From a virus (Duplodnaviria; Caudoviricetes), in the IMG/VR virus record IMGVR_UViG_3300021400_000057, positions 1 through 64,000 of that record: a stretch of DNA of 64,000 nt. One strand, 5' to 3'. Made by a program: the position numbers and the translations under genes. Shown here in pieces: positions 22,714-64,000 of the stretch. Every line of letters begins with the position of its first letter. The first letter of the stretch is position 1. Under the pieces are notes generated by a model. That model was not told the DNA's origin and ran no database searches. It worked only from the letters and a program-made list of their open reading frames with translations.

Positions 22714-25700
22714 GTGGAGCGTTCTATTGGTTCATGGCGTTATGAAGACCCCGGCGATGGTCGGTTGCTTTCTGTTGATAAAACAGTAGCGCGTTGTAAC
22801 TTTGCGTCGCGTACTGGTGTTGCGTTCTTTCAGACACAGAGAATACCGTGCTTTAATATTCCAGAGTTGGAGTCGGCAAAAGAAGTTTGGATAAAGTTTG
22901 ACGCATATTTATATCATCCAAGTGATAGTAAGAGTGCAGTAATTCGTTGTTATGATGAAACAAGCGGGCAGACTGGTCTTGCTATAAACCCATATCGTTA
23001 CGTTGGTTCAAATTGTGTTAATGTTTGGGTTAATGGTACTGCCATTAAAAATGAAAGTCGTACATTTTTTGGCTTCCATTCTATCAAAATTCATCTTGTA
23101 TCAGATGCAACGAATGGTTTAATGGAAGTGTTTTTGGATAACAATACTCCGTACTTTACTTATAAAGGCAATGTAAACAATGGCAACCTATTTACTAAGC
23201 TCTATATTCAGTGCGATAGGAAGTATGTCCTTGTAAGTAATTTGATTATTGGTAGCGATGATATTGATATACATGAGCTTGTACCATACGAGGCTAAACC
23301 ATATAGATATGTCAATCTTGGTACGGCAGATGGATTGACTGTTGCTGGTACGACTGTTGAATCTACCGAATATTCAAGGACGGGTACGGCATTTTATCAG
23401 ACGCAACGTGTTGGTTGTTTTGGCGTACCAATGATGGATGAGGTATGGATTAAATTCGACCTTTATCATAAGGCAGGAACAAGTAGATTTCGTTGCTATG
23501 TAAATCCTGATAGCACTTCTGGGATTTGTCTATCGCAAAATACATCAAGTATAATTGCTATATTTCACAACAATGTAAGTACAAGTTCTAACGTAGATTG
23601 TGTTAAAGCAAATACGATTCAAACTTATATTGTTCATATTGCTTCTGGTTATCGGAGGCGTGGAGTGTATGGGTATGTTGTCGAATATTATGTAGATGGT
23701 GTGTTGAAAAAGAGTTATACTCCTACGAATATAATACCACCATTAGAGGGGCTATATTTACAATCGGATGACGAGAATAATTTATTTTCTAATATTGTTA
23801 TTGCAAGTACAAAAGACGCTTTAGAAGATGCACAAGTTGGGGCATTTGAATTTCATGCTGATATACAACGGACATCTGCTCGTTATTGGCGATATGAAAA
23901 TGCTGGCATTATAGAAGCGTTCCCTGCTTCCGAGAATTTGTCACAGTACGGAAGGAATGTGCGTTGTAATTTTGCCTCTCGTACAGGAGTAGGTTTTTAT
24001 ATTACGCAAACTTTTTCTTTGCTTCCAGTCGTGCAAGAAAAAGAGTTGTGGGTAAAGTTTGATATATATGCAGGGAAAAGTTCGCGTACAGGCAATACGA
24101 CTGAAAGTTATTGTATTCGTTGTTTTGATTGGGAGAACAGGACTGGTATAGTAATTAAGCCAAATAGTACGATAGAAATGTATATAAACGATAACCGAGT
24201 AACTTATTATTCTCCTCAAATCTGGGGCTTTCATAGTATTAAACTACATTATGTCTCTAATAAAACCAATGGCTTGTTTGAGGTATATTTGGATAGCGAT
24301 GATGTACGGTATTACAGCTATAAAGGTAATGTTTGTAATGGCAATGTCTTAAAGAATTTTTACTTTCAGAGCGATGATAATAGAGGAATTTTTAGTAATG
24401 TCATTATTAGTACATTTGAGCCTAGTGTAAATGAGGTTGTCCCATATAATAAAGGATTGTATTCATATACAAATAAAGGCGAAATAGATGCGTATATGAC
24501 GAATGGTGTGGTTGTTGAAACGCCTACAAAATCAAGGACAGGTACAGCATTTTATCAACCAGAGTGGAAGATAGGGCTTAATCTACCAGAAATGGACGAG
24601 ATGTGGGTACAGTTTGACTTGTATCATCATGGAACTCGTTTTTGGGCAGAAGCGGCTTCGATTGGTAACAAAGAAACGATGCGTGTTACGGGTGTATGTA
24701 TAAAGAAGGATACAGTTAATACCTTAATACCCGTAATAGAAGACCGTGCTTGGTCACTGTCGAAGAATATTCAAGAAGATAAGATTCAGACATATTTGCT
24801 TCATTTGGTGTCTGGTGCTAACGATGGTAAGGTAGAAGTTTGGGTAGATGATGTAAAGCAGTTTGTTGAATACCAAACAGGCTTTGTTACACCTTCATTC
24901 CAAGGATTCCTGTTCTATTCTAAGACTGACGACAACTTGTTTTCTAATATTGCTATTTCAGATAAGCGAGAGAATTTGGCACTCGATGTGTATAATGTAG
25001 AGTATCACGCAGATATAAGTTGTGAGATTAAATCCTCTAAACATGAAGTCGATGAACATTTTGATATTATGCGAGAGTTGATTGAGCTTACGAAAAGTCA
25101 TCACTTTGATATATTACGCAATGTTCAGCAGAGCTTTGAGCAACATAGCGATATAAAACGTCGTATTGTTGGTAGCGATTACACATTAGCTCATTATGAG
25201 AATCGTGGCTATACTGATTATAGCTATGCTGTTAATATGTTGTGTCGGTCAACTTCTAGGACTGGCGTTGGCATGACGCATGATGTGTGGCAATTTCCCG
25301 GTTGGGATGCAGATGTATGCCATGTTAATTCAAACGAGATGTGGGTAAAGATTGATGTGTTTGCATGGGATGAACGGACACTGTGTCAACCGTCTATCGA
25401 AATTAGTTTTCATACGGAAAATTCTTATTGTAAAACATCCGTGTTGCTCTGTGCTGTAAAAGGCTCTATTCGAGCAGGAGTTGAGTTATGGCGATATAAG
25501 GACGGTACTACTCCTTCTATGCAATATGATATGGATAAGTATATTGGATTCCATACTATAAAGGCTCATGTAATTACCGACAAAACAAATGGAGTCATCG
25601 AGTGTTTCCTTGATAATAGTGCCACTCCGTGCTGTGTGTTTCATGGCGATGTCTGTGAAGGCGAAATTATTAAGACTATCAGCGTATTTGGTAATTACTT

Positions 25701-28700
25701 TGTTACTATTAGTAATATGATTGTTGACGCAGTTTCAATAGACTCTGATGACGTAGTTGCTTATGACGGTAACAATGAATTTGCTTGGTCTAGTGAAGGT
25801 AGAATAGAGGATTTGAATAACAATCCTATCGTACTTATTGACAATGGTGTTTTTACTGGTGGCGTAGCAAGCGAAAAAACAATCACGGTTGCTGGCTCAA
25901 CAGTTGTGGATGCTACGAAATCGCATACTGGTGTTGCATTTTACCAAACTCAACAGGATGCTAATTGCGTGAGTATGCCAGTCGTTGACGAAATGTGGGT
26001 GCAGTTTGACTTATATCATCATGGAACAACATACTTCTCTTGCTTCATAAGTCCAGATAGTGACGCAACCAATGGTAGTGGAGTTGGTTCTGAACCATGT
26101 CGCAACTTTGGTATTCGTCTAAAGGATGGAACATCGGATAAGATAGAGGTAATTATTGGTAAATGGATTTTAACAACTGTCGATATTGTACCAGATACGA
26201 TTCAGACATATCGTATGCACGTTATGGCTTACGCAGAGAGTGCAAGGATTAAGTTATGGATAGACGGGGAACAAGTAGCATACCGTGGAATTGACCGTGG
26301 CGTTGGTTACTTTGCAAGTCCATGTTTCTATTCTTCTAACGCTGATAACTTATTCTCAAATGTCACAGTTTCTAATAACGAAGAAGCCGTAAATTCTTTT
26401 GTCATACATCGTAGGTTTGAAGAACATTTTGATATTATGCGAGAGTTGATTGAGCTTACGAAAAGCCATCACTTTGATATATTACGCGATGTCCAGTATG
26501 GCTTTGAACACCACAACGATATAAAACGTCGTATTGTTGGTAGTGATTATGCATTAACTCATTATGAGAATCGTGGTTATACTGACGAGAGTTATGCTGT
26601 AAATTTGCTGTGTCGGTCAACTTCAAGAACTTGCGTTGGGATGTCGTATTTTATATTAAATGGTATGCGGTATATCCCACTTCTTGATATGGATGTACGT
26701 CCTGCGAATACGAAGGAAATGTGGGTAAAGTTTGATGTGTTCGCATGGGACGACAGGTCATCCTATCAACCGTGGGTTGATGTCCAGTTTTACACAGAAA
26801 ACTCTAATTGTATAACAACAACGTATTTCTGTGCTGTAAAAAATCCAATCAAAGCAGGAGTTCAAATAGCGCGGTATGAAGATGGTATTGACTCTGCCGC
26901 TGAGTATAGTATGGATAAGTACATCGGTTTCCATACTGTAAAAGTCCATGTGATTGCTAGTAAGTCAACTGGCGTAATTGAATGTTTCCTTGATAACAGC
27001 ATTACTCCATGTTGTGTGTTCAATGGTAGTGTTTGTGAAGGCGAGAATATTGAACTTATTAGAGTGTCTGGTCATAACGCTGTCACAATAAGCAATATAA
27101 TTGCTGATACATTTGAGGTAGACACCAACGAGGTAATTGCCTCGGATGGCAGAAATAAATTCGCGTGGTCTACCGAAGGCATGGTAGAGGATTTGGACAA
27201 TAATACTATCACGCTTATCAACAATGGTGTTGCTACTAGCGGTATGGTGCAGACAGGTATATTGAGAGTTGCTGGTTCGACGGTCAGTGACAATACAAAG
27301 TCACGCACTGGCGTTGGATTTTACCAAACTCAACAGAAAATGAATTGTGTACCTATGCCAGTTGTTGATGAAATGTGGGTACAGTTTGACTTGTATCATC
27401 ATGGGACGACGGATTTCTCTTGCTTCGTAAGTCCAAATAGTGATAACGCTATTGGTGTTCGTCGAAAGAGTGATGCGTCGGACAAGATAGAAATAGTTAT
27501 TGGTACATCAGTTTTGACGACTATTGATATTGTGCCAGATACGATTCAAACATATCGTATGTACGTTATAGCCAATGCAGAAAGTACGAAGATTAAATTG
27601 TGGATAGACGGGGAACAAGTAGCATATCATGGGGTTAGTCGTGGTGTTGGTTACTTTACGAGTCCGTGCTTCTATTCTCCTAACTCCGATAACCTATTCT
27701 CAAATGTCATGGTTTCTAATAATGAGGAAGCAGTAAACTCTTTTGCCATACATCGTAGGTTTGAAGAACACTTCGATATAAGTAGAGAGGTTATAGACGG
27801 AGGCACTCAAAATATAATTCAAAATCATTTTGATATAAGCCGCGAAGTAGAGTTTGTAAAGCCCCCGCATAAGCTGTGGCGTTATGAAAACCCCGGCGTT
27901 ATTGACGGTGAGTGGGGTACGAGTTCTGATAAACAGTATTGGAGTGACAGGCATTTATTTGAAATACATGGCGCTGTATCCAAGACTGGTACGGCTATCG
28001 CGCAGAAAAACCCAGACGCTTACCCTCATCTATACTTTAAGCTACCGGATGAAGCGAAGTATTTTGATGAATTGTGGGTAAAGTTTGACTGGTGTATTTG
28101 CGCTCACGGCGGTTATGAGTTTCCGTATCTTTGGATGAGTGGTTATGCTATTGACATAAATGGAGCTTCTAATTTAAGGAATGTATCGGAAGATGGAGAG
28201 GTACTTATAGCCCCTGATGGTAGGAGCATACCAGCGCGTGTTCCTCCTAATAATAATCCGTATGAGGACGATACTACATGGGTAGATACAACGATTCCAT
28301 TTAGCGTTCATACATTGATGCTCCATTATGCCTTTGATTATACGGATGGCTTGTTTGAGGCTTATCTTGATGACGATAGTGTGCCAATATACAGTGCAAG
28401 TGGTCGTATGCGTCCGATTGATGAAGTCACTATGGAAATAGCTGATATAGGTATTAGTAACATAGTTATCAGCAACGAGAAAGTGGACTTCAATGAAGTT
28501 ATTGGACGTGTTCATATTCCTAATACAGAAGGTGTAGCAACGCACAAAACTATTGACTTGGAGAAGGAATTGACCGTTGGCATTGGTATCAGTATTGAGG
28601 GCGAAGGATATGCCATGATACGGACTGCTGGCGAAGATGGTCATTATACTGCATGGGAAAATTATATTCCTTGTGAACGCCTGTGCCGATACATTGATGT

Positions 28701-28977
28701 ACGGCTTCATGTGCGTAATAAGATTACAAGCGCGACGTTGACGGTTGATAAGCGCACAGTAAGCAAAACGATTTCCAAACATTTAACGGCAGGAGATAAC
28801 ACTGTGGAATATGGTGAAGTGTTCTATAATATCCCTGCTGTGATTCCTACTGCTATTGGTGACGGTGTGACGGCTCACGTTATCAGTAAAGATACGGGGT
28901 CGTGTGTTATCAAAATTACTGATAATAATAATAACGCCGTCGAGGGCGATGTAGATATTTTGATACGGGGGTGGTAA
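22714..28977 (+). CDS. Giant modular tail fibre / receptor-binding protein with about nine lectin (LamG)-like modules
   Basis: 2087 aa; recurring YxNxG...SRTGxxF...ExWVxFD...LFSN module; C-terminus resembles tail-tip C-termini. Confidence 0.8.
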   Translation: MERSIGSWRYEDPGDGRLLSVDKTVARCNFASRTGVAFFQTQRIPCFNIPELESAKEVWIKFDAYLYHPSDSKSAVIRCYDETSGQTGLAINPYRYVGSNCVNVWVNGTAIKNESRTFFGFHSIKIHLVSDATNGLMEVFLDNNTPYFTYKGNVNNGNLFTKLYIQCDRKYVLVSNLIIGSDDIDIHELVPYEAKPYRYVNLGTADGLTVAGTTVESTEYSRTGTAFYQTQRVGCFGVPMMDEVWIKFDLYHKAGTSRFRCYVNPDSTSGICLSQNTSSIIAIFHNNVSTSSNVDCVKANTIQTYIVHIASGYRRRGVYGYVVEYYVDGVLKKSYTPTNIIPPLEGLYLQSDDENNLFSNIVIASTKDALEDAQVGAFEFHADIQRTSARYWRYENAGIIEAFPASENLSQYGRNVRCNFASRTGVGFYITQTFSLLPVVQEKELWVKFDIYAGKSSRTGNTTESYCIRCFDWENRTGIVIKPNSTIEMYINDNRVTYYSPQIWGFHSIKLHYVSNKTNGLFEVYLDSDDVRYYSYKGNVCNGNVLKNFYFQSDDNRGIFSNVIISTFEPSVNEVVPYNKGLYSYTNKGEIDAYMTNGVVVETPTKSRTGTAFYQPEWKIGLNLPEMDEMWVQFDLYHHGTRFWAEAASIGNKETMRVTGVCIKKDTVNTLIPVIEDRAWSLSKNIQEDKIQTYLLHLVSGANDGKVEVWVDDVKQFVEYQTGFVTPSFQGFLFYSKTDDNLFSNIAISDKRENLALDVYNVEYHADISCEIKSSKHEVDEHFDIMRELIELTKSHHFDILRNVQQSFEQHSDIKRRIVGSDYTLAHYENRGYTDYSYAVNMLCRSTSRTGVGMTHDVWQFPGWDADVCHVNSNEMWVKIDVFAWDERTLCQPSIEISFHTENSYCKTSVLLCAVKGSIRAGVELWRYKDGTTPSMQYDMDKYIGFHTIKAHVITDKTNGVIECFLDNSATPCCVFHGDVCEGEIIKTISVFGNYFVTISNMIVDAVSIDSDDVVAYDGNNEFAWSSEGRIEDLNNNPIVLIDNGVFTGGVASEKTITVAGSTVVDATKSHTGVAFYQTQQDANCVSMPVVDEMWVQFDLYHHGTTYFSCFISPDSDATNGSGVGSEPCRNFGIRLKDGTSDKIEVIIGKWILTTVDIVPDTIQTYRMHVMAYAESARIKLWIDGEQVAYRGIDRGVGYFASPCFYSSNADNLFSNVTVSNNEEAVNSFVIHRRFEEHFDIMRELIELTKSHHFDILRDVQYGFEHHNDIKRRIVGSDYALTHYENRGYTDESYAVNLLCRSTSRTCVGMSYFILNGMRYIPLLDMDVRPANTKEMWVKFDVFAWDDRSSYQPWVDVQFYTENSNCITTTYFCAVKNPIKAGVQIARYEDGIDSAAEYSMDKYIGFHTVKVHVIASKSTGVIECFLDNSITPCCVFNGSVCEGENIELIRVSGHNAVTISNIIADTFEVDTNEVIASDGRNKFAWSTEGMVEDLDNNTITLINNGVATSGMVQTGILRVAGSTVSDNTKSRTGVGFYQTQQKMNCVPMPVVDEMWVQFDLYHHGTTDFSCFVSPNSDNAIGVRRKSDASDKIEIVIGTSVLTTIDIVPDTIQTYRMYVIANAESTKIKLWIDGEQVAYHGVSRGVGYFTSPCFYSPNSDNLFSNVMVSNNEEAVNSFAIHRRFEEHFDISREVIDGGTQNIIQNHFDISREVEFVKPPHKLWRYENPGVIDGEWGTSSDKQYWSDRHLFEIHGAVSKTGTAIAQKNPDAYPHLYFKLPDEAKYFDELWVKFDWCICAHGGYEFPYLWMSGYAIDINGASNLRNVSEDGEVLIAPDGRSIPARVPPNNNPYEDDTTWVDTTIPFSVHTLMLHYAFDYTDGLFEAYLDDDSVPIYSASGRMRPIDEVTMEIADIGISNIVISNEKVDFNEVIGRVHIPNTEGVATHKTIDLEKELTVGIGISIEGEGYAMIRTAGEDGHYTAWENYIPCERLCRYIDVRLHVRNKITSATLTVDKRTVSKTISKHLTAGDNTVEYGEVFYNIPAVIPTAIGDGVTAHVISKDTGSCVIKITDNNNNAVEGDVDILIRGW
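25054..27765 (+). repeat. About 1.35-kb diverged tandem duplication inside the fibre gene
   Basis: GAACATTTTGATATTATGCGAGAGTTGATTGAGCTTACGAAAAG at 25054 and 26422; a third linker start at 27766. Confidence 0.9.
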
Positions 28978-36637: not shown

Positions 36638-37795
36638 TCATTTTTTAATGAGCATATCTTGAAGTACGTCGGCGGTCTTGTGTTCGCTTGATTGTAGTAG
36701 GTGACTGTATATAGCTTGGGTTGTCATTGTGTTGGCGTGACCTAGCTTTCCTGCAATGGTTTGTAGGTCTATTCCTGCGGCAAGTAGATACGAGGCTACC
36801 ATGTGTCTAAAGGTATGCGGGGTAATCCGTCTGAATCCATGCTTCTTTGTGAACCTGTCAAGCCAAGCATTGAATTGGTCTGCGTGACCAAGCCGCCCGT
36901 CGAAAGAACCAAACACATAATCGTCCTTGATATTCTCCGCGCCTTTCCATTCGTGACGGGTTCGGAGAATTTTTTTACGTTCCTGTGTTTCCTTTTGATA
37001 TGTGGCAAGGAGCTTACATACACTGTCAGGGATAGAGATTGTACGACCAGCGCCGCCCTTTGTGCGCGGTACGATATGATTACCTATCCCGACATTGTAT
37101 TGGCACTCTTGCTCGACGGTAATGGTCTTTGCTTTAAGGTCAACGTGCTTCCATTGAAGTCCAAAGATTTCTCCGCGCCTCATGCCTGTGAAAATCGTAA
37201 GGTTAATTAAGGCTTGGTGCTTGGTATCTTCTTGACTCAATGCCTCGATGATAGCTTGGCACTCTGACGTGTCTAGGATTTCCATAGGTGCTTTGGTTTT
37301 CTTTGGCTTGTCAATGTGGGCGGCAGGGTTGTCATTGATAAACTGCCATTGTACTGCCTTTTCAAGCATGGCATGAAGGAAAGCATAGTGCTTCTGAATC
37401 GTATTTTGCGATAGCTTTTCTTCATTAGTATTTGATAGGTGTTCAATAAATTCCATTACATGAAATGGGCGTAGTCGTTGAAGCGCGTACTGTCCCAAGT
37501 ATTTATCTATGCGGCGAAATAAGTAGTTATCATATTGAATTGTATTTATTGTAACGTGTTTCTTTGCGTAATGCGTAATGTAGTAATCAAAGAATTGTCG
37601 TAGCGTGAGTTGTCCTTCGGTTGCGGTGGTATCTCCATGTACTTCCATCGCAAATTGCTCCCATGCCCTTTGTGCGGCACGCTGACTGGTAACATTAACT
37701 GTCCGTCCTACGTTCAGTTGTTTCCCTGTGCTGTCATATCCAAGCGATACTGTCAGCCGATATGTGCCGTCTTTTTGCTTCTTTATTTTTCGCAT
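36638..37795 (-). CDS. int: Tyrosine integrase
   Basis: N-terminal arm-binding domain, SAM-like domain, TGMRRGE, HTFRH and LGH..Y catalytic motifs; probable start ATG 37795. Confidence 0.96.
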   Translation of the reverse strand: MRKIKKQKDGTYRLTVSLGYDSTGKQLNVGRTVNVTSQRAAQRAWEQFAMEVHGDTTATEGQLTLRQFFDYYITHYAKKHVTINTIQYDNYLFRRIDKYLGQYALQRLRPFHVMEFIEHLSNTNEEKLSQNTIQKHYAFLHAMLEKAVQWQFINDNPAAHIDKPKKTKAPMEILDTSECQAIIEALSQEDTKHQALINLTIFTGMRRGEIFGLQWKHVDLKAKTITVEQECQYNVGIGNHIVPRTKGGAGRTISIPDSVCKLLATYQKETQERKKILRTRHEWKGAENIKDDYVFGSFDGRLGHADQFNAWLDRFTKKHGFRRITPHTFRHMVASYLLAAGIDLQTIAGKLGHANTMTTQAIYSHLLQSSEHKTADVLQDMLIKK

Positions 37796-37908
37796 CGGAC
37801 AGACCCCCATTGATAGAAAAGAGGCTCTATGTATGAGCCTCTCCATAATCATTTTTGTGCGGCGTACTATATTCGGGTGGTTTTATCATCTTAACTTATT
37901 ACTTTATG

Positions 37909-47391: not shown

Positions 47392-47403
47392 GGAGTGATG
47401 CTA

Positions 47404-49488
47404 ATGAAGGTAGAAAAGCGAGACGGCAGGATTGAGAACTACAATCCTCAAAAGGTAGCAAAGGCAGTAGCGGCGGCGGCAAATGAGGTAGACGAACCGT
47501 GTCCGTCAATCCGATTGTCCTTTGACAAAGATGTTGTAACTGTCGATGAGATTCACGACGAGGTTGAACGGCACTTGATGAAAGCTAATCCTGCGGTAGC
47601 AAAGGCTTACATTCTCTATCGCCAACATCGCACGGATATTCGCGAAGGTAAGAGCGAACTCATGGGGAAGGTTGGTAAGCTGGTTGCAGAAATGAACCAT
47701 GACAATGCCAACACTGGAAACAGTGCGGCAAGCAAGATGTATGGCATTGCAGAGGCCGCAAGCAAGACTTACTTCCTCGCGCATGAACCGAAACGTATGG
47801 CAGAGAATCACAAGAAGGGACGTATTTATCAGCACGATTTGGGTTATCGTTCCCTTACATTCAACTGTTTTTTCAATCCTCTTGGGAAAATGCTGGAACA
47901 TGGCTTTGACAACGGGGTAGGACGTATCCGTACTCCGAAACGGATTGGAAGTGCAGTAGCTTTGGCGGCGATTATCCTGCAATCCAGTCAGAACGATATG
48001 TTTGGCGGTCAAGGCTTCCTTCACTTCGACACAGACCTTGTGCCGTATGTCAAGAAAGAGTTTGACTATCAGTGGGGGCAGATTATTAAGACGTTAGGCG
48101 CGTTCAAAGCTGATGCCTCTGACGAAGATATTGACAAACTTGCATGGAAACGCACGGACAAGGCTGTGTTTCAAGCAATGGAAGCGTTTGTGTATAACAT
48201 GAACACGATGCGGTCAAGGAGTGGAGCACAAGTAACCTTCTCGTCTGTCAACTTCGGCACGGATACGGGCGAAGAAGCGCGTATGATTTCCAAGAATCTG
48301 CTGAAAGCCTACATCGCAGGACTTGGTGACGGCGAGAATCCTATCTTCCCGAACCTCTGCTATCGAGTACAAAAAGGTGTGAACCTCAATCCGGGCGACC
48401 CGAACTTTGACCTTACGGAGCTTGCCATTGAGTGCGTCGGAAAGCGTATCCAGCCTAGATTTGTATTCGTTGATAGCCCTGCATATCCCGATAAGTGGGA
48501 AGCAGGAACGATGGGATGTAGAACGGCTATCCGTTCCAACGTCAACGGCGATGCTTCGCCCGATGCCCGTGGCAATCTTGCTTTTAACACAATCAATCTT
48601 CCATATCTTGCGCTGGAAGCGAATCGAAAAGCCGAAAAGACTGGCGAAAACAATGTGGTGACGTTCTTCCGAATCCTTGATATGGCAATATCCGATGCCA
48701 TTGCAGAGCTTCGTGAACGCTACGGTATCATCAAGGAATTGAAAGTTAAAGACATTCCTTTTATTGGTCAGTGGTACATGGGGCATGAAGGTTTGACTTC
48801 AGAAGATACGATTGAGCCGATGGTGAAAAACGGGACGCTTTCGGTAGGGTTTATCGGGCTTGCGGAAACTCTTATGGTACTTCGCGGCGAACATCACGGA
48901 CAGTCACAGACAGCGCAGGAGCTTGGGCTTGAAATTGTTGGGCGTATTCGTGAGCGTACCGACAAAGCCACGAAAGATTACAGCCTAAACTTCTCGACAT
49001 TCGCTACTCCTGCGGAGAGTGCTTGCTACACACTTCTCAAAGCTATCCGCAAAGAGTTTGGCTACGTCGAGGGCGTGACGGATAAAGAGTATCTGACAAA
49101 CTCTTTCCATTTGCCTGTAGGCTTTGAGTGCGATATGAAAACAAAGATTGACATTGAAGCTCCGTATCATCTGCTCTGCAACGCAGGAGCTATCATGTAC
49201 GTCGAGGCTCCTTCATCGCCCAAGTTCAATCCCGAAGGTATGTTGAAGCTGATTCAGTACATGGCTGAAAGCGGCGCTGTATATGGCGGCTTGAACTTCG
49301 AGCAATCCTTCTGCCGCGAGTGCCACTACACAGGTACTTATGGGGACACTTGCCCGAAATGCGGAAGCAAGAACGTGAGAACAGTGCGGATTGTCACAGG
49401 CTACCTTTCCGAAGTACAGCGGTTTAACCCCGGAAAGATTGCAGAATCGAGCGAAAGGTATGCTCATGCGGGAGGCGGATTGCATTGA
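47404..49488 (+). CDS. nrdD: Anaerobic (class III) ribonucleotide reductase with ATP cone
   Basis: VEKRDG ATP cone, MGCRT, FATPAES, YLTNSFH, CxxC..CPxC and TGYL motifs. Confidence 0.96.
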   Translation: MKVEKRDGRIENYNPQKVAKAVAAAANEVDEPCPSIRLSFDKDVVTVDEIHDEVERHLMKANPAVAKAYILYRQHRTDIREGKSELMGKVGKLVAEMNHDNANTGNSAASKMYGIAEAASKTYFLAHEPKRMAENHKKGRIYQHDLGYRSLTFNCFFNPLGKMLEHGFDNGVGRIRTPKRIGSAVALAAIILQSSQNDMFGGQGFLHFDTDLVPYVKKEFDYQWGQIIKTLGAFKADASDEDIDKLAWKRTDKAVFQAMEAFVYNMNTMRSRSGAQVTFSSVNFGTDTGEEARMISKNLLKAYIAGLGDGENPIFPNLCYRVQKGVNLNPGDPNFDLTELAIECVGKRIQPRFVFVDSPAYPDKWEAGTMGCRTAIRSNVNGDASPDARGNLAFNTINLPYLALEANRKAEKTGENNVVTFFRILDMAISDAIAELRERYGIIKELKVKDIPFIGQWYMGHEGLTSEDTIEPMVKNGTLSVGFIGLAETLMVLRGEHHGQSQTAQELGLEIVGRIRERTDKATKDYSLNFSTFATPAESACYTLLKAIRKEFGYVEGVTDKEYLTNSFHLPVGFECDMKTKIDIEAPYHLLCNAGAIMYVEAPSSPKFNPEGMLKLIQYMAESGAVYGGLNFEQSFCRECHYTGTYGDTCPKCGSKNVRTVRIVTGYLSEVQRFNPGKIAESSERYAHAGGGLH

Positions 49489-49946
49489 GAATAGCAGGGT
49501 TTCGGGAAACGTCACTCTTTGACGGCAAAGGAATTAACTTTGTTATCTTCTTTCAAGGCTGTGAACACCATTGCGAGGGCTGTCAGAACCCTCAAACATG
49601 GGACAAGAATGGTGGAGTATCCGTCAGCTTGAAAGGTATCAAGAAGATTATTGAACCGTATATCGGATTCATTGACGGAATTACCTTTTCAGGTGGTGAC
49701 CCTGTATTGCAGATTGGTGATGTGCTTGACTTGGCTTGGTGGGCTAAGTCAAAGCACCTTACCACAACGCTTTACACAGGCTATACGCTTGACGAATTAC
49801 AGAAACGATACATTGACCTTACCCCTTTTGATTTTATTATCGACGGACGCTACGAAAAATCCAAGCACTCTGTTGATACGCCGTTCAGAGGGTCGGAGAA
49901 TCAGTCGATGTATTGCTATGAGAATCACAAGTGGGTAGCAATATGA
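49485..49946 (+). CDS. nrdG: Anaerobic RNR activating enzyme
   Basis: GCEHHCEGCQNP radical-SAM motif; SGGDP; FRGSENQ. Confidence 0.96.
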   Translation: MRIAGFRETSLFDGKGINFVIFFQGCEHHCEGCQNPQTWDKNGGVSVSLKGIKKIIEPYIGFIDGITFSGGDPVLQIGDVLDLAWWAKSKHLTTTLYTGYTLDELQKRYIDLTPFDFIIDGRYEKSKHSVDTPFRGSENQSMYCYENHKWVAI

Positions 49947-52388: not shown

Positions 52389-52891
52389 AAGACAAGTTGG
52401 CAGAGTTCATAGATGACTATAACTGTGGGCGTGTCACTGTCGAGGATACTTTCAGACGGCTCGATTTTGAACGGTGGAAAGAGGACAAAGCGCCACTCCC
52501 GCAGGATTATATTGAATTACCACGCGACCCGCTGGATATTGTACTGGAAAAAGAGCGTGTAAGCACGCTCATCGAAACGATTAAGTGGCTAAAACAGAAC
52601 ATATCCGACGAGCTTTGGCGGATTTTCTGTATGGTTGCAAGGGGATATACCCAAGAGAGGATAGCGAAAGCCCTGAATATATCGCAACCTACCGTAAGTC
52701 GTAGGCTACAAACCCTACGGGCTTTGACGGAAGGGAACCTCCACGAATTATTGTACCGTATAGAGAAGCAATATACCGCAGTTCATCCACGGCAATCAGT
52801 ACAGAAACACGACGACGAGGACATGAGCCACGTCAACGGTGAAGTCCGTACTGAAAAGATTGTCGGCTGGAAAAAGTCAGACGCTAGATGA
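52385..52891 (+). CDS. Sigma70 region-4-like HTH regulator (putative late activator)
   Basis: GYTQERIAKALNISQPTVSRRL; last gene of the operon. Confidence 0.75.
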   Translation: MKDKLAEFIDDYNCGRVTVEDTFRRLDFERWKEDKAPLPQDYIELPRDPLDIVLEKERVSTLIETIKWLKQNISDELWRIFCMVARGYTQERIAKALNISQPTVSRRLQTLRALTEGNLHELLYRIEKQYTAVHPRQSVQKHDDEDMSHVNGEVRTEKIVGWKKSDAR

Positions 52892-52991
52892 AAACCCATA
52901 TATGATTTTCTTCCTGCTTGTGTGCCAGACTAGCAGAAAGGGGTCAAGGAGCGTCGAATAGTACCTCGTGCACAAGTTTATATGCGTAAAT

Positions 52992-53047
52992 AAAAAAAGA
53001 CCGTGAAGCACCCTCTTTGGAAGTTTGAGGATACTTCACGGTTTTTT
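52992..53047 (+). terminator. Bidirectional terminator-like hairpin 1
   Basis: A tract-ACCGTGAAG...CTTCACGGT-T tract. Confidence 0.8.
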
Positions 53048-53110
53048 CTGCGTTATTACAGGAGCTTTAAGCTGTCAAGTTATCCTACTTGATAGATAGG
53101 AATTAAAGAC

Positions 53111-53170
53111 AAAATAAATCCACGAACTATCCTCAAATTGCAAACGAGGGTGGTTCGTGGGTTTGTTTTT
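53111..53170 (-). terminator. Bidirectional terminator-like hairpin 2
   Basis: CCACGAAC...GTTCGTGG flanked by A and T tracts; ends the leftward block. Confidence 0.75.
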
Positions 53171-53263
53171 ATTTATAGCTCTTTATCTGACGAAGGGCGT
53201 ATCGAATAGCTAGTATCGTTGGCACATGATACTAGCATATATCAATTCACTAGATACGAACAT
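53169..53263 (-). pseudogene. Possible frameshifted type I toxin-like peptide
   Basis: MFVSSELIYASIM and VPTILAIRYALRQIKSYK lie in adjacent frames, joined by restoring one base. Confidence 0.35.
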
Positions 53264-53274
53264 ACCTCCTTTTT

Positions 53275-53337
53275 TCAGTAGTGTTTTTCAGTAAGCAACA
53301 TAAGCAATACGAATAAAACTATCATGGTGACGAGCAT
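53275..53337 (-). CDS. 20-aa hydrophobic peptide (type I toxin-like)
   Basis: AAGGAGAGG RBS; MLVTMIVLFVLLMLLTEKHY. Confidence 0.5.
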   Translation of the reverse strand: MLVTMIVLFVLLMLLTEKHY

Positions 53338-53358
53338 GATAAACCTCTCCTTGCGGTA

Positions 53359-53547
53359 TCACCCGCCTGTTACTTCATGCTCATTATACCACTCCTTAAA
53401 TTTTGTTGTAAAGATTTCCATATCCGCAGGAGCTTTTATCGCCGCAATAGCACGCTCGATTTTCACCATTGCCTCAAAATCATCGAGTGCATTTGCTCCG
53501 ACATAGCTCATTTCCAGATATTCCAGTACGTCATCCATTTGTGTCAT
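53359..53547 (-). CDS. Hypothetical protein
   Basis: AAGGAGG RBS; 62 aa. Confidence 0.7.
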   Translation of the reverse strand: MTQMDDVLEYLEMSYVGANALDDFEAMVKIERAIAAIKAPADMEIFTTKFKEWYNEHEVTGG

Positions 53548-53553
53548 ACCTCC

Positions 53554-54342
53554 TTATCCATACACAGCGGCAAGCGTATTCTTCACCGTCCCTTCTCCGA
53601 AATTCAAATACTTCATCGTGGTTGTGATAGTTTTATGTCGTAAGCATTGCTGAATATCCTCGATAGGCACACCCGCTTTCTTCAATGTGTTTGCAAAGAA
53701 CCGTCTGAAAGAATGGCAATGGAAATCCAAACCATTCATAGTACACTCGTTCTGAATGAACCTCTGAATATCCCGAATCCCAAGAGGCTTCCCGCCCTCT
53801 GTCAAAAACAAGACATCAGAGAGGCCACTTCCTGCCGTTTTCTGACGCACCTTGATATAAGACTGCAAGGCATCACGCACTCTCCCGTGAACGAGGGGGA
53901 TAACAGCGTCCTGCTTACCTTTTGTGTGCCGAATTAGGATTGCATCGTCGGAAACGTCCTGCATTTTGATGGACGCAATCTCACCTACACGCAATCCATT
54001 GTAACACATTAGCGCGAATATCGCTTTGTCCCTCGGCTTCGACAAGCCTTTCCACAAAAGCTCTACGTTTGCAGGGGTAGGGCATGGTTCTACCTTTTCC
54101 TCTGCCCGATAGCCCTTGATAACTCGCGTAATGTCACGGTCATTTACGCCGTACCATTCAAGCGCAGAACGAAAAACTTGCAGATACAATCGCTTTGTAG
54201 TATCTGCAAGTCCACTGGAAATTACGTTGATAGCTTCTTGGCGTGTCCCTTCTGGGAAGAAGCCAAGCGCACGCTGATAAGTCTTAAACGTGTTTACTGA
54301 TTTCGTCTGCCTGATTTCTTCCAGAAAATCCGTGTAGTTCAT
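53554..54342 (-). CDS. Second tyrosine recombinase (compact, XerC/D-like)
   Basis: NGLRVGE, K, HSFRR, LRH and Y catalytic residues; no arm-binding domain. Confidence 0.92.
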   Translation of the reverse strand: MNYTDFLEEIRQTKSVNTFKTYQRALGFFPEGTRQEAINVISSGLADTTKRLYLQVFRSALEWYGVNDRDITRVIKGYRAEEKVEPCPTPANVELLWKGLSKPRDKAIFALMCYNGLRVGEIASIKMQDVSDDAILIRHTKGKQDAVIPLVHGRVRDALQSYIKVRQKTAGSGLSDVLFLTEGGKPLGIRDIQRFIQNECTMNGLDFHCHSFRRFFANTLKKAGVPIEDIQQCLRHKTITTTMKYLNFGEGTVKNTLAAVYG

Positions 54343-54515
54343 TATTGTGTCTCCCTTCTAAACTCATCCTCAAAGCGTTTGATTGCGTCCTCTTTCGTTT
54401 CCCCTTTATAAACTATGATGGGGACATATCGCCTCAGTTTCCCGACCGGGGTATCCTCGACGAAATTATGAAGAATCACATCAAAGTCCTTGTCAGTACG
54501 GCAATCACAAATCAT
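54342..54515 (-). CDS. Small hypothetical protein
   Basis: AAAGGAGG RBS; stop overlaps the recombinase ATG. Confidence 0.65.
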   Translation of the reverse strand: MICDCRTDKDFDVILHNFVEDTPVGKLRRYVPIIVYKGETKEDAIKRFEDEFRRETQ

Positions 54516-54706
54516 TTCCGTACCTCCTTTTCCTCCTTTATTGCCTCGTCTAAAACTGTATTGAAGCATCCGCACTGCATATCAGTGTCCATGTGGCAAT
54601 GGTCGCTCACACCACAACACCGCGAACAATATGCACTTATAAAACCACACAACGCGGCTTTTGCCTCCGCCTCTGTCAGTTCGTCAATCCGTTCCTTTAT
54701 GTCCAT
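54512..54706 (-). CDS. MDIK..EAEAKAAL family cassette D
   Basis: Shared N-terminus; Cys-rich middle. Confidence 0.8.
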   Translation of the reverse strand: MDIKERIDELTEAEAKAALCGFISAYCSRCCGVSDHCHMDTDMQCGCFNTVLDEAIKEEKEVRK

Positions 54707-54887
54707 GTTGTGCCTCCTTTAGTGCATCATCTAAAATGTAGCTCATGTGCACATTTATTTCGCGCTCATACTGTAATTCGTTTTCAAACGGTGTAGCGAG
54801 GTTTTCTGCGTTATTTTCAAGCAAATAATACAGCGCGGCTTTCGCCTCCGCCTCGGTTAATTCGTTAATTCGCGTTTTTATATCCAT
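54684..54887 (-). CDS. MDIK..EAEAKAAL family cassette C
   Basis: Shared N-terminus; C-terminus DDALKEAQHGHKGTD. Confidence 0.8.
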   Translation of the reverse strand: MDIKTRINELTEAEAKAALYYLLENNAENLATPFENELQYEREINVHMSYILDDALKEAQHGHKGTD

Positions 54888-55044
54888 CTGAAATCTCCTT
54901 TCCGTCTTCCGTATACCATGTATTTGAGCCGTTCATATAGTTATATACTCGACAATCATGCCTTTTGGCATAATCCAATGCCCGCGCTCTTGCGGCTTTA
55001 GCCTCTGCTTCGCTCAGTTCGTCAATCCGTTCCTTTATGTCCAT
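54865..55044 (-). CDS. MDIK..EAEAKAA family cassette B (59 aa, not in ORF track)
   Basis: MDIKERIDELSEAEAKAARARALDY...DGYKNAN; AAGGAGG RBS. Confidence 0.75.
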   Translation of the reverse strand: MDIKERIDELSEAEAKAARARALDYAKRHDCRVYNYMNGSNTWYTEDGKEISDGYKNAN

Positions 55045-55258
55045 GTTGTGCCTCCTTTAGTGCATCGTCAAGCAACATATTTGCACAATTCCACGGTGTC
55101 GTACACTTATCTATTGTCCCATCCGGAAGTATCTCAGAATGCCGACAGTCACCACAGTGTATGTTTTCGTACATTGTTTTAATGCACTGTTCCAGCGCGG
55201 CTTTCGCCTCCGACTCGCTCAGCGCGTCGATTTTCGCTTTTATGTCGTCCATCGTCAA
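55022..55258 (-). CDS. MDDIK..ESEAKAAL family cassette A
   Basis: Shared N-terminus; CGDC...C...C middle; C-terminus DDALKEAQHGHKGTD. Confidence 0.8.
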   Translation of the reverse strand: MTMDDIKAKIDALSESEAKAALEQCIKTMYENIHCGDCRHSEILPDGTIDKCTTPWNCANMLLDDALKEAQHGHKGTD

Positions 55259-55482
55259 TCAGTCCTCCATGTTCTATTTTGCCCTTGATTGATTAACCAC
55301 CCACTTACATTAGCGCCGACACCAACAGGTAGTTTTTCTTTCGGAATTAACTCCTTCGCAAATGTTAAGGCACTTTCAAGCCTATCATTTCGCGCCCTCA
55401 ACCGTTGAATCTCTCTGTCTTGATACTGTAATTTCTCCTTCAACGATGAGAGTTCTCCATACTCTATTTTAACTTTTCCCAT
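55255..55482 (-). CDS. Hypothetical coiled-coil protein
   Basis: GGAGG RBS before MGKVK. Confidence 0.65.
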   Translation of the reverse strand: MGKVKIEYGELSSLKEKLQYQDREIQRLRARNDRLESALTFAKELIPKEKLPVGVGANVSGWLINQGQNRTWRTD

Positions 55483-55522
55483 CGTCAGCCCTCCAATTTC
55501 CACTTAATTCGTTGCTTCACTC

Positions 55523-55720
55523 TTATATCCACATCGGCGGATGCTTACCGACACACCTTTCACACACGCAAAAAAATCTATATTTTTTATGATGCGTGCG
55601 TGCTTCCGCACGTTCTCCCGTATATTCGTAATCATAAAACCCACGCCTCGCTGGAACTGTTACGCCACAGTATTTGCAAGTACCGCTATAGCGATTTCTA
55701 TGACGTTCGTTGCGCTTCAT
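55523..55720 (-). CDS. Small zinc-binding protein
   Basis: NRYSGTCKYCG...CERC; AGGAGG RBS. Confidence 0.7.
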   Translation of the reverse strand: MKRNERHRNRYSGTCKYCGVTVPARRGFYDYEYTGERAEARTHHKKYRFFCVCERCVGKHPPMWI

Positions 55721-55721
55721 T

Positions 55722-55982
55722 TTATACCTCCTTCGTCAACCATTCATGACCCTCCTCACTACCTTCCACGAAGTTATCTTCCTTCCACCGCCTTATCTGT
55801 GTGTAAACCCTTTCATTATTCCACTCCGCAATAGCTCGTTCCGCCAGAGACGGCGGAATGGAAACATGAGTATTGCATTGCGTACACCGTACATCATATA
55901 CTTCTTGCCCGTCCCGTGTTGTATAGTGTGATAGTTTTGCTTCGGCTCCGCAATGACATCGCCTAATTTTTTCCATTGTCAA
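55722..55982 (-). CDS. Lar-like protein
   Basis: CHCGAEA...VRCTQC...AIAEWN. Confidence 0.7.
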   Translation of the reverse strand: MTMEKIRRCHCGAEAKLSHYTTRDGQEVYDVRCTQCNTHVSIPPSLAERAIAEWNNERVYTQIRRWKEDNFVEGSEEGHEWLTKEV

Positions 55983-56157
55983 TCACCCTCATCCACTTAT
56001 CTGTCGCTTCTTTTTTTGTATCTCCAAGCGGCCCTCTTGCACAACAATCATTGCAATAAACATAGAATTGCCCATACTCGCCGGGGTCAGTGCTATTCAC
56101 GATTTCAACATTCTTGCTTTTGCAAAATAGGCACACACTAAGTTTCTTCATTGTCAT
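55963..56157 (-). CDS. Lar-like protein
   Basis: CLFCKS...VYCNDC.ARGP...A...W. Confidence 0.75.
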   Translation of the reverse strand: MTMKKLSVCLFCKSKNVEIVNSTDPGEYGQFYVYCNDCCARGPLGDTKKEATDKWMRVIDNGKN

Positions 56158-56762
56158 ACCCCCTGTTCCATTTTGTAAGTCTTTCCCTTTTTCTTTCCTT
56201 CGCCTTTCTTAAACTCCTGAATCCACACCACCTTTCCACTCTTATACCTACGGTAATGTCCTCGTACTGTGAAGATTCCTTTCGGGCTTGCATGATGACC
56301 GCCCAAAGAAGGTCGTATCACTCTCCTTTTCAAGATGTATGTCACTCTGTCTTTACTGTAAACCTTATCACGTTTTTTGGTTTTCGTTTCTTGCTGGACT
56401 TGCCGAGGCTCTGCTTTGACTAACTCTGGCTTCTCGTACACCATGTACGCCATGAGAGCGCAATAACAAGTAAGAATATCGTTAAAGCTATCCCTCGCTA
56501 ATACTGTATCCCCCTTTCGTTTGATAAGCATACCGTCATACCTAATCTCGAACACTACTTTGCAGATTTTTTGATAGCCCTTATGGGCGTAAAGCGTCAG
56601 CCACCTTCCTTCTCGAATCCCTTTAATGCGTAAATCGAAATAGACAAAGGCTATCTCCACAGCTTTCAACGGCATCGGCATCGTGTGTATCAATGGTTTG
56701 TTTTCTTTCGCCCAATCAAATAACGCTTTTACGTCGTCCTGCGTCAATAGCACTTTGTCCAT
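56154..56762 (-). CDS. Hypothetical phage protein
   Basis: 202 aa; C-terminal VRGHYRRYKSGKVVWI motif. Confidence 0.75.
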   Translation of the reverse strand: MDKVLLTQDDVKALFDWAKENKPLIHTMPMPLKAVEIAFVYFDLRIKGIREGRWLTLYAHKGYQKICKVVFEIRYDGMLIKRKGDTVLARDSFNDILTCYCALMAYMVYEKPELVKAEPRQVQQETKTKKRDKVYSKDRVTYILKRRVIRPSLGGHHASPKGIFTVRGHYRRYKSGKVVWIQEFKKGEGKKKGKTYKMEQGV

Positions 56763-56775
56763 TCCTTATCACTCC

Positions 56776-57129
56776 TTATTTGCCTTTATATTCATCGACC
56801 ATTGCCGCGACAAAAACTTCCAATAATTCTTTTACCACATTATCGCTTTGCCCTCTGAGCATTATGCCCATTGCAGACCCCAATGCGATAGTGGTGTCAA
56901 GCAAGTGCATCTTCCCATCAAGTCCAACTGTAACTTCATCATTCTTCAGTGTGATTTCGATTTTTCCATCGTTCATGTGTGCTTTCTCCTCCTTTTCCAG
57001 ACGTTCCTTTTCCTCTTTGCATTTCGGGCATTCCTTCGGAATCTTTTGGCTATCAGCTACATAGCCACACTTCTCGCATTTCACCACAAGCTGTCCACCA
57101 TTGTCAGCAACTACCCATTTCGTATCCAT
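56776..57129 (-). CDS. Zinc-ribbon hypothetical protein
   Basis: CEKCG...CPKC. Confidence 0.7.
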   Translation of the reverse strand: MDTKWVVADNGGQLVVKCEKCGYVADSQKIPKECPKCKEEKERLEKEEKAHMNDGKIEITLKNDEVTVGLDGKMHLLDTTIALGSAMGIMLRGQSDNVVKELLEVFVAAMVDEYKGK

Positions 57130-57342
57130 TTACATCGCTCCCTTCTGTTTTTCCAGTTCTTCAATGCGTGCAATCAAAAGCTCTACTGCATCATCGCGTA
57201 GATACACAATGCCATACCGTAACTCACTGGCTATTTCAACATCTTCTCTGGTCTGACACTTATGCTCTCGTAAATACTCGTCACTTAACGCTCGCTCATT
57301 TGAGACATTATCAAATGCCTTGATTACATCTTTGTATGTCAC
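57130..57342 (-). CDS. Hypothetical protein
   Basis: Probable GTG start; RBS. Confidence 0.6.
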   Translation of the reverse strand: MTYKDVIKAFDNVSNERALSDEYLREHKCQTREDVEIASELRYGIVYLRDDAVELLIARIEELEKQKGAM

Positions 57343-57644
57343 TACATTTCCCCCTCTTTCTTCAAGCAATCTGTAAGCGGCTTCCTACCATGTAAGCCAC
57401 GACCTTCCTCGTATTGCTTTAAGGTTCTCTTGGCTTCTTGGTGCGCTCGAATCAACGCTTGCCCGTGCCGCCCATCGCTAAGAACTCTCTCCATACTTTC
57501 AACGTCGCGGGTAAGGTATCCCCACCGTTCGTACTGGTCTAACGATAGTCCGAAATGATGGGCTTCGTGCTTCCTTGCTTCAGCCTTTTTCCCATATTCT
57601 GCTCCGCAAATTTCACAACGATAAATTGTTTTCACTGGCATCAC
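57342..57644 (-). CDS. C2H2-like zinc-finger protein
   Basis: YRCEICG.....A.KHE..H. Confidence 0.7.
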   Translation of the reverse strand: MMPVKTIYRCEICGAEYGKKAEARKHEAHHFGLSLDQYERWGYLTRDVESMERVLSDGRHGQALIRAHQEAKRTLKQYEEGRGLHGRKPLTDCLKKEGEM

Positions 57645-57652
57645 CCCCTCTC

Positions 57653-58063
57653 TTATCTCCGAATCACACCGCCGAAAGTAGGACGCAAACCTACGCTTCC
57701 ATACTCTGAAAATGCTGGCTCGGTCTTGTTGATGCTGTATGCAAACTGTGTGAAGTACACAGAATCATCCTTGTTCAATGCCCACTCGCTTTTGTCTGGC
57801 TCAACAAACAGGATAGTCAGCAATTCCATATCATCGAAGTAGCTACGAATTAAGTGATACGGCAGATTTCCCGTTTTCTTTGCCCAATCATCGACCAGTT
57901 TCTTGTCATCATCTTCAAGCCAATACAACGCTCCCATGTGTTCGGATACATTTAACACTCCTTTCTTGAAATCCCTTACCACATTCGGGTGGAGTTTCCA
58001 CCAACCCATACGCCTGATTGCTTCTTCCTTCATTTGCTCCATTGTTGCTTTTGCCATTGTCAT
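57653..58063 (-). CDS. Hypothetical protein
   Basis: AAGGAGG RBS. Confidence 0.7.
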   Translation of the reverse strand: MTMAKATMEQMKEEAIRRMGWWKLHPNVVRDFKKGVLNVSEHMGALYWLEDDDKKLVDDWAKKTGNLPYHLIRSYFDDMELLTILFVEPDKSEWALNKDDSVYFTQFAYSINKTEPAFSEYGSVGLRPTFGGVIRR

Positions 58064-63266: not shown

Positions 63267-63376
63267 TCTTTCACGTCCTTTCGTTTTGCCAAAACAAAAG
63301 GGCGACTTCACGTCGCCCATGCCAGTCTCCTTGTGTAATTACCCCCCTTTCGTCATGGATTCTCTGACATTCCGCC

Positions 63377-64000
63377 TCATTTCTTGACGGTATCTTCGTC
63401 CTCCTTTCCCGTTTCGTTCGGAGTTTCCAAGTTTTCTTTGTCATCGCAATCATACAAGCCCATGATTTCTTCATCGTAAAGCTCCTGAATTACAGCGTCT
63501 CCGTACTGTCTACGCCATTCTTCCAGTTCATCAATTTCCATAATCTCACAAAGTTCGTCATACATTTGACGATATTTTGGCGGTACTGGCTGAAGTTCGT
63601 CAGAACTCATGCCGAGTCTTGCTTGTTCCGTAGCAGTCAATGTGCTATCATATCCTCCCCAACCATCACCATAATATCCTCCGTAGTAATCGTAGGATTT
63701 TCGCGGATAATTCCATAGGGATTTGTAATTCTCGTTGAGTTTCGTCCAGACGTGCACTTTTTCGATATACTCATACCTCGGAAAATCTTTGCTTGCAGTA
63801 TCCGCAACCATTTCCTTAACCTTCTCAATCGTTGCGGATAAGTGCTTCCTGTTTATGTATTCGTGCTGAGTATGGGCGTAGTAATATCCGCTTGACAGAT
63901 TGACGGCGGCTACTCCCATATCAGGAGCAATGAAGGAAATATCGCTGAAGCTCCCGTATTCTGTGCGAAAGCCCTTTGATGTTACATAATCCTCAAAGTC
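63377..64000 (-). CDS. M28/M20-like Zn-dependent peptidase, C-terminal part (5' truncated)
   Basis: Frame open to the window edge: DFEDYVTSKGFRTEYGSFSDISFIAPDMGVAAVNLSSGYYYAHTQHEY. Confidence 0.7.
   Translation of the reverse strand, partial: DFEDYVTSKGFRTEYGSFSDISFIAPDMGVAAVNLSSGYYYAHTQHEYINRKHLSATIEKVKEMVADTASKDFPRYEYIEKVHVWTKLNENYKSLWNYPRKSYDYYGGYYGDGWGGYDSTLTATEQARLGMSSDELQPVPPKYRQMYDELCEIMEIDELEEWRRQYGDAVIQELYDEEIMGLYDCDDKENLETPNETGKEDEDTVKK

Follow-up and report, generated by a model that had tools for sequence, protein, structure and literature searches.

Here, we analysed four small overlapping genes, cassettes A to D, in a 64,000-nucleotide stretch of phage DNA (the window), which comprises bases 1-64000 of the 75,333-bp IMG/VR virus record IMGVR_UViG_3300021400_000057. 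The four genes are paralogues in tandem and belong to a family of small phage proteins that is previously undescribed and absent from Pfam, PHROGs and NCBIfam, and whose members have near-constant ends, here called the leader and the trailer, on either side of highly diverse middles. These genes are probably constant-end cassettes that are shuffled by general homologous recombination and whose ends also carry the signals for translation coupling. Shuffling over evolutionary time is supported by sequence comparison because relatives vary in the number, order and loci of their cassettes, and have their breakpoints at leader or trailer edges.

Constant ends and variable middles of the cassette family

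As outlined in a preliminary description of the window, four minus-strand open reading frames (ORFs) lie head to tail between 54512 and 55252 (Table 1). All four match the leader motif MDIKxRIDxL(T/S)ExEAKAAL, which occurs only four times in the genome, and the family hidden Markov model (HMM; E values of 1.7e-16 to 7.8e-25). A profile of the paralogues retrieved 234 proteins; those listed, 120 in number, have lengths of 36-121 aa and no Pfam domain on record. An exhaustive HMMER scan of 1.84 billion representatives returned 100 clusters at 50% identity. Typical family proteins have 55-80 aa, and nearly all begin with MDIKxRIDxLTEAEAKAAL and finish with LDEALKEARK. Across 125 parsed members, mean pairwise identity is 80% in the leader and 72% in the trailer but only 20% in the middle, which is 24-48 aa long; these middles group into 45 types at a threshold of at least 40% identity. 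At least four cysteines are present in 63% of these members and none or one in 33%, and in the Cys-rich class four cysteines align and are at least 90% conserved.

Two earlier statements on the proteins encoded by the array required amendment. The shared N-terminus that had been noted is present, but a C-terminal motif (LDDALKEA / LDEAIKE) is also common to A, C and D, so that both ends are constant, with B having the leader only. The trailer of A, C and D, (L/I)LDxALKEA(R/Q)K, contains an embedded Shine-Dalgarno (SD) sequence, whereas B instead ends in DGKEISDGYKNAN. In addition, the middles had been considered unrelated, which applies only in part: A and D belong to one Cys4 class, and their sequences suggest that they probably share a zinc knuckle, whereas C is of a Cys-free helical class and B is an orphan. 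B is known only from this phage, its protein group (P0019) coming solely from the two contigs of this genome. Orthologues of A (P0014 and P0017) have 78-88% identity to it. The four genes themselves stood, although not the start of A at TTG 55258, as family homology favours ATG 55252, which is most likely its start codon.

Other searches were uninformative. No significant family was found for A to D in Pfam, PHROGs or NCBIfam, nor did any of them match PF14354 (Lar_restr_allev); a PDB profile search with the family gave nothing under E 0.5, and the ESM Atlas returned only unnamed clusters with scores of at most 0.87. A single-protein locus search of IMG/VR with A had no match, an alignment-based search being required. 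A scan of IMG/VR with the junction pattern had 0 matches, and a looser pattern applied to JGI metagenomes identified 114 loci, three of which have family genes (two of these being duplicates of earlier loci). Fused, duplicated or broken family genes also exist (P0029, P0016, P0071, and a broken third leader in locus L035).

The perfect repeat reported in the preliminary description is exactly 53 bp long and has just two copies, R1 between A and B and R2 between C and D. Within the 75,333-bp genome no exact internal repeat is longer, the 107-bp terminal repeat aside. Its dual-frame character was also borne out, as it encodes DALKEAQHGHKGTD, an AAGGAGG SD and MDIKERIDEL; the terminus of A (..LLDDALKEAQHGHKGTD) has a tail that is the next leader read in another frame. 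The 23-nt overlaps were located at 55022-55044 (A/B), 54865-54887 (B/C) and 54684-54706 (C/D), and in C a leader variant (..RINEL..) provides the TAA stop for B. The chain continues as described, with an ATGA overlap between D and gene E, and a single base shared by E and the recombinase gene (53554-54342).

Table 1. Features of the cassette array and its surroundings in the window, and cassette arrangements in related loci
Feature	Position	Strand	Description
Cassette A	55022..55252	-	Cys4 class; 76 aa from ATG 55252 (78 aa if TTG 55258); family HMM E 7.8e-25
Cassette B	54865..55044	-	59 aa; family leader and orphan body, without family trailer; HMM E 1.7e-16, mostly owed to the leader
Cassette C	54684..54887	-	67 aa; Cys-free helical class; orthologues at 75-87% identity
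Cassette D	54512..54706	-	64 aa; Cys-rich (7 Cys); trailer ..LDEAIKEEKEVRK*; ATGA overlap onto gene E
Junction repeat R1 (A/B)	55014..55066	-	53 bp; A trailer and tail, SD AAGGAGG, first 10 B leader codons
Junction repeat R2 (C/D)	54676..54728	-	53 bp; same sequence as R1
Small gene E	54342..54515	-	57 aa, MICDC...; outside the cassette family
Xer-like tyrosine recombinase	53554..54342	-	262 aa; last gene of the chain; PF00589, 2e-25
82-aa coiled-coil gene	55255..55503	-	Upstream of A; anchors same-locus comparison with L041 and L042
Two Lar-like zinc-ribbon genes	55722..56157	-	55963-56157 and 55722-55982; upstream of the array, same operon
Second site	63331..63380	-	Two-cassette block of L006 sits at the homologous point 63376/63377; none there in the window
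L005, L007-9			Single C-type cassette in a neighbourhood of RusA, Lar-like and MazG-like genes
L006			C-type followed by a new Cys4 type
L033/L034			Cys-free type, D-type and a third type, in this order; seen in two independent contigs
L010, L020, L039			Each with a pair of cassettes
L035-38			Two cassettes and a broken third leader abutting AT-rich DNA with tRNA-like sequence
L044			A-type, then another Cys4 type; 10-nt overlap using the TAA stop
L041, L042			Orthologue of the 82-aa gene, then A-type only; same locus as the window

Both ends of the cassettes are conserved at synonymous sites, i.e., beyond the protein level. In the leader, the Ile3 codon is ATA in 27 of 28 cassettes (background 26%), the Ile7 codon is ATT in 28 of 29, the Asp8 codon is GAC in 27 of 28 and the Ala17 codon is GCC in 21 of 24 (background 19%), and the trailer Leu codon is CTA in six of six (background 5%). 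RNA structure was ruled out as the cause of the leader conservation, 39 aligned leaders showing two pairs and no covariation. The 5' end of a cassette consists of an SD, the ATG and ~19 leader codons, and has stops in both other frames: TGA at -5 from the usual 5' flank GGAGGGCTGACG, TAA at +8 from ACATAAA, and TGA at +21 from ATTGAC. Therefore, any upstream gene ends within a few bases of the cassette start. The 3' end, GCA CTA AAG GAG GCG CGG AAA TGA, combines the trailer helix with an ATGA stop/start overlap and an SD that serves the following gene.

These off-frame stops bear on the main rival explanation, which is plain tandem duplication followed by divergence, and which we consider unlikely although it deserves serious attention. 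In that scenario the ends are held by protein need, overlapping frames and ribosome-binding signals while the middles diverge in an arms race; the 53-bp identity is one recent gene-conversion patch, and the variation among relatives is the normal gain and loss of accessory genes. The stops need exactly those synonymous choices that are conserved (ATA-A giving TAA, and ATT-GA giving TGA), as this scenario would have it, and the Cys4 class can be aligned end to end, which also speaks for it.

We surveyed junctions in 47 distinct cassettes. In 28 of these the upstream ORF stops exactly 23 nt inside the leader, and ~15 of those upstream ORFs are non-family genes, so that the 23-nt overlap given in the preliminary description is real but is not peculiar to joints between cassettes. 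Since non-family upstream genes also end 23 nt in, the dual-frame junction is a general property of the 5' end and not a special array joint. On the 3' side, an ATGA overlap onto an unrelated gene (22 of the 47) and a 23-nt overlap onto another cassette (12 of the 47) were found. The ~15 non-family upstream genes represent at least four unrelated families with the common tails WEG* or ..ADDGHKxxD*. That cassettes share a 5' flank (TGGGAGGGCTGACG) although the genes upstream of them come from at least four unrelated families counts against duplication and divergence. The two tails were seen upstream of cassettes in L011, L019, L023, L024, L030 and others, their last codons lying within the cassette 5' flank; the upstream families with a common tail are Lar-like, '...ELIERREAAGEW', '...LIDELRDEW' and HExxH-type. 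One-base differences in a GGGAGGG run toggle between the WEG* and ..ADDGHKxxD* endings.

Cassette arrays in relatives and how they may have arisen

The variability in cassette number and order that would be expected of a shuffled array was found among the relatives, which have one, two or three cassettes and in which middle types of the window occur with other neighbours and at other loci (Table 1). The four-cassette array of the window is the largest seen. The second cassette of L033 is a D-type with 92% DNA identity to D of the window. In L041 and L042, homology to the window stops at 55050, within the trailer SD, and an unrelated gene is next. Eight relatives could be aligned to the array at the DNA level, and in each of them homology ends at leader or trailer borders; in window coordinates, the edges are at 55246-56, 55050, 54992, 54888, 54725-31, 54712, 54641-50 and 54530-32. 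Middles of orthologous cassettes keep 64-96% identical codons (mostly at least 80%), against 50-86% for their leaders, and there is no correspondence between leader variant and middle type. Duplication and divergence is therefore confronted with breakpoints at cassette ends in eight of eight array-aligning relatives, with leaders that are uncoupled from the attached middles and less conserved than these between orthologues, and with identical middle types in different arrays and positions. In its favour, orthologous middles are stable at 78-97% amino-acid identity, indicating that there is no hypermutation. Diversification of the diversity-generating retroelement type was dropped, since the middles are of unequal length and differ all along, and since those of orthologues are stable.

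A third cassette in L035:4188-4640 (also in L036-L038) is broken right after the leader by stops, and AT-rich tRNA-like DNA and then HNH endonuclease genes follow. This broken cassette may represent a replacement event at the leader edge. Public samples with the family appear to be largely from the ruminant gut.

In one relative, cassettes have probably been relocated to a second site. The L006 block is 390 bp long (752-1141), is located directly after the stop of the counterpart of the gene at 63377-64468, and brings with it a 23-nt tail that matches perfectly the last bases of the 82-aa gene's orthologue in L041. Based on this foreign tail, the block appears to have left a 'home' locus through joints located away from the cassette ends. 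The last cassette of L006 takes its C-terminus (..AERQRIHDERGVITQR) from flanking DNA that is non-coding in the window.

Under the shuffling explanation that we favour, each family gene is a self-contained cassette whose middle is an exchangeable stretch with a Cys4 knuckle or a helical fold, and the conserved ends would double as homology patches. Host RecA or a phage annealing protein would recombine these ends, and would thereby add, delete, swap or relocate cassettes with translation coupling kept. In this phage, R1 and R2 would at present be the substrate, and their crossover would give either A-D or A-B-C-B-C-D; the adjacent tyrosine recombinase would play no part.

Several points weigh against this explanation. 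The conservation of the ends at synonymous sites could stem from overlapping-frame and translation-initiation constraints alone, with no role in recombination. The case is built on relatives, no recombinant molecule of this phage having been observed. The left and right joints of the L006 block are non-homologous, from which it follows that at least some moves are illegitimate and not based on end homology; relocation by such joints is also in keeping with duplication and divergence. Most relatives are short, low-coverage metagenome contigs (2.3 for L006), and some of their junctions could be assembly chimeras on the shared leader; countering this concern, independent contigs agree (L041 with L042, and L033 with L034). 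Finally, the function suggested below is drawn from gene neighbourhood; the fold searches gave nothing specific.

The preliminary description had further coupled the array to the Xer-like recombinase, and this coupling was not upheld. Across the records of 10 relatives, no cassette has a tyrosine recombinase (PF00589) closer than 8 kb; in five records an integrase-sized gene (open frames of 354-379 aa) is found at a distance of 8-12 kb, and the other five, including one terminally repeated record, have none. Arrays of two or three cassettes occur without a recombinase on the same contig. In the window, no attC-like inverted-repeat core sites were found at the junctions or in the 53-bp repeats, and neither arm of a dif-like site at 53070-53097 has a copy in the array. 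With no adjacency in relatives and no inverted repeats, the linkage between array and recombinase is therefore most plausibly one of position alone. It is thus very improbable that the array is integron-like, with the co-transcribed recombinase cutting and joining at the junction repeats to shuffle cassettes, even though that recombinase is short and Xer-like, and the array leads via gene E into it through overlapping stops and starts. The NCBIfam integron-integrase models score it at only 40.8 and 19.9 bits, their cut-offs being 265 and 435, and it is below every NCBIfam cut-off, including that of its best match (XerA-like, 117 bits). Besides this 262-aa Xer-like protein (53554-54342), the phage encodes a second tyrosine recombinase, an integrase of 404 aa whose N-terminal domains are SAM-like (36638-37852). 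Candidate roles for the shorter one are dimer resolution or acting as the partner of the 53070-53097 site. A search of IMG/VR for relatives of the same locus via the recombinase, a 202-aa gene or E found just one distant recombinase, at 28% identity; the comparison at this locus instead drew on orthologues of A (L041/42).

Protein models, possible function and genome setting

Structure models were produced by AlphaFold2 (AF2) with family alignments. The model of A (predicted local distance difference test score, pLDDT, of 84) has helices at residues 3-11, 15-32 and 55-71 with a small hairpin between, and that of C (pLDDT 91) has helices at 3-8, 12-30 and 37-61. The antiparallel hairpin topology, rather than the coordinates, leads us to infer that helix 2 at its conserved start and helix 3 at its conserved end should be neighbours, the variable part forming the distal tip. 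Less certainly, the constant N- and C-terminal helices would pack into one base that presents a variable tip. Foldseek searches with the A and C models against the PDB, and searches of BFVD and VIA-wide, returned only generic helical hairpins (best Z in VIA-wide 6.5).

The constant leader, the hypervariable Cys-rich core and the tandem copies resemble arrays of precursor peptides, and there are weak sub-threshold Pfam matches to Cys-rich motifs. However, it is highly improbable that these are precursors of ribosomally synthesised and post-translationally modified peptides (RiPPs), whose constant leader and follower would serve a modifying enzyme. No Pfam family of modifying enzymes is beside the cassettes in the window or in relatives, the neighbours being Lar-like, RusA, MazG-like and methylase genes and small orphan ORFs, and the sole radical-SAM gene is the NrdG activase beside NrdD. 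Moreover, one third of the members are without Cys, and AF2 gives compact, confident folds.

The sole lead on function is gene neighbourhood. A Lar_restr_allev gene (Pfam, above cut-off) is immediately upstream of a cassette, with the 23-nt overlap, in five loci, and Lar-like genes are near cassettes at several further loci and in the window. The two in the window match PF14354 at E 2e-5 and 0.015, both below cut-off, and phrog_599 at 7e-8 and 1.8e-4. In L011:4451-5040, three Lar-like genes are in tandem directly before a cassette, which suggests that in these phages small arrays are formed by Lar-like genes as well. An early anti-defence role beside Lar-like restriction-alleviation genes is a moderate guess from this context, and, with less confidence again, the proteins may act early alongside Lar-like genes against variable host targets. 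For the anti-host effectors on a docking helix that had been envisaged in the preliminary description, this neighbourhood is likewise the evidence available.

A broader proposal, which we offer only tentatively, is that the constant ends are a portable 'plug-and-play' adaptor and homology arm by which phages of anaerobes would share a pool of ~50-100 hypervariable, translationally coupled mini-effectors exchanged through general recombination, an integron-like economy without an integrase that would serve a Lar-linked anti-restriction island. If true, this would be a clear natural example of phages keeping diverse, exchangeable tiny accessory proteins expressed wherever they are inserted, with gene ends that are protein scaffold, translation-coupling signal and recombination arm at once. 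The association with Lar-like anti-restriction genes would provide concrete candidates for anti-defence screens, and the small size and high-confidence models of the proteins would suit structural work and use as display scaffolds.

The genome, of which a near-identical sister contig of 75,399 bp exists, has direct terminal repeats (107 bp), is 45% G+C and encodes a primase-helicase, an anaerobic ribonucleotide reductase and its activase, a dUTPase and a full-length integrase (36638-37852). NrdD and the radical-SAM activase (NrdG) are at 47395-49946 of the window, a pair that points to a strictly anaerobic host. The family had a single match in a scan of GTDB genomes, on a contig of a Selenomonadales metagenome-assembled genome (L032), and host assignment from this lone contig is weak. 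The array is at the far end of a minus-strand series of small, mostly orphan genes that runs from ~67.9 kb down to 53.4 kb. Within the scanned stretch of 52800-58000 there were no terminator-like sites, and three weak promoter-like matches versus 9.3 expected by chance. The DNA of 53500-56200 had zero matches to 50,697 GenBank phages. Gene E had no homologues outside this phage in an IMG/VR search and no significant Pfam, PHROGs or NCBIfam family. An inverted repeat (10-8-10, one mismatch) at 54495-54523, GTACGGCAAT ... ATTTCCGTAC, spans the stop of D and the start codon of E and could fold in the mRNA, gating translation of E; it is absent from the other junctions and was the only short-spacer inverted repeat found. 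Elsewhere in the window are two very large ORFs, at 6699-15992 (3097 aa) and 22714-28977 (2087 aa), the latter with two pairs of exact repeats inside it (25054-25097 and 26422-26465; 24601-24632 and 27373-27404).

Comparison with known systems

Modular shuffling of small orphan genes in T4-type phages has been described for promoter-early stem-loop (PeSL) cassettes (PMC2839356, PMC4122927). As in the array, short conserved repeats surround small non-essential early genes, and recombination explains insertions, deletions and replacements between related phages. The PeSL, however, is an intergenic promoter and terminator, whereas the repeats of the array are inside coding sequence and carry signals for translation, not transcription; PeSL cassettes are hosted by T4-like phages and the array by phages of anaerobes. 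Of the PeSL hallmarks, which are a sigma-70-type early promoter and a stem-loop terminator within the repeated element, the array has no terminator or stem-loop, and one weak promoter-like match at the start of A (55258-55230).

The internal proteins of T4 are diverse anti-restriction proteins in which only the N-terminal capsid-targeting sequence is conserved (PMC3012670). That sequence is removed by the prohead protease, and the proteins are packaged in the phage head. They share with the cassette proteins a short constant N-terminal leader on diverse small phage proteins and a link to anti-restriction. The cassette proteins differ in also being constant C-terminally, in being part of an early accessory operon instead of a head module, and in being known from genes alone. 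The early-type operon position of A to D argues against their being of the T4 internal-protein type.

For the counter-defence gene tifA of T4, recombination-driven 'accordion' amplification has been reported (bioRxiv 10.1101/2022.04.14.488369), in which short flanking homologies recombine and change the copy number of a small anti-defence locus, much as envisaged for the array. The tifA copies are identical and arose under laboratory selection, whereas the cassettes are long-diverged paralogues known from sequence comparison. Relaxed homologous recombination by Rad52-like phage recombinases has been proposed as a source of phage mosaicism (PMC3945230), and exchange at short, imperfect homology patches between dissimilar genomes is the mechanism that we propose for the array. 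An annealing recombinase was not identified among the genes scanned in this genome.

Integrons hold promoterless, co-oriented arrays of gene cassettes that depend on IntI and attC sites. The phage array is similar in having promoterless, co-oriented cassettes next to a tyrosine recombinase, but it is without attC-like inverted repeats, and its recombinase is neither IntI-like nor conserved beside cassettes. Considering these likenesses and differences together, we rate the array as a distinct form of modular shuffling based on conserved linkers.

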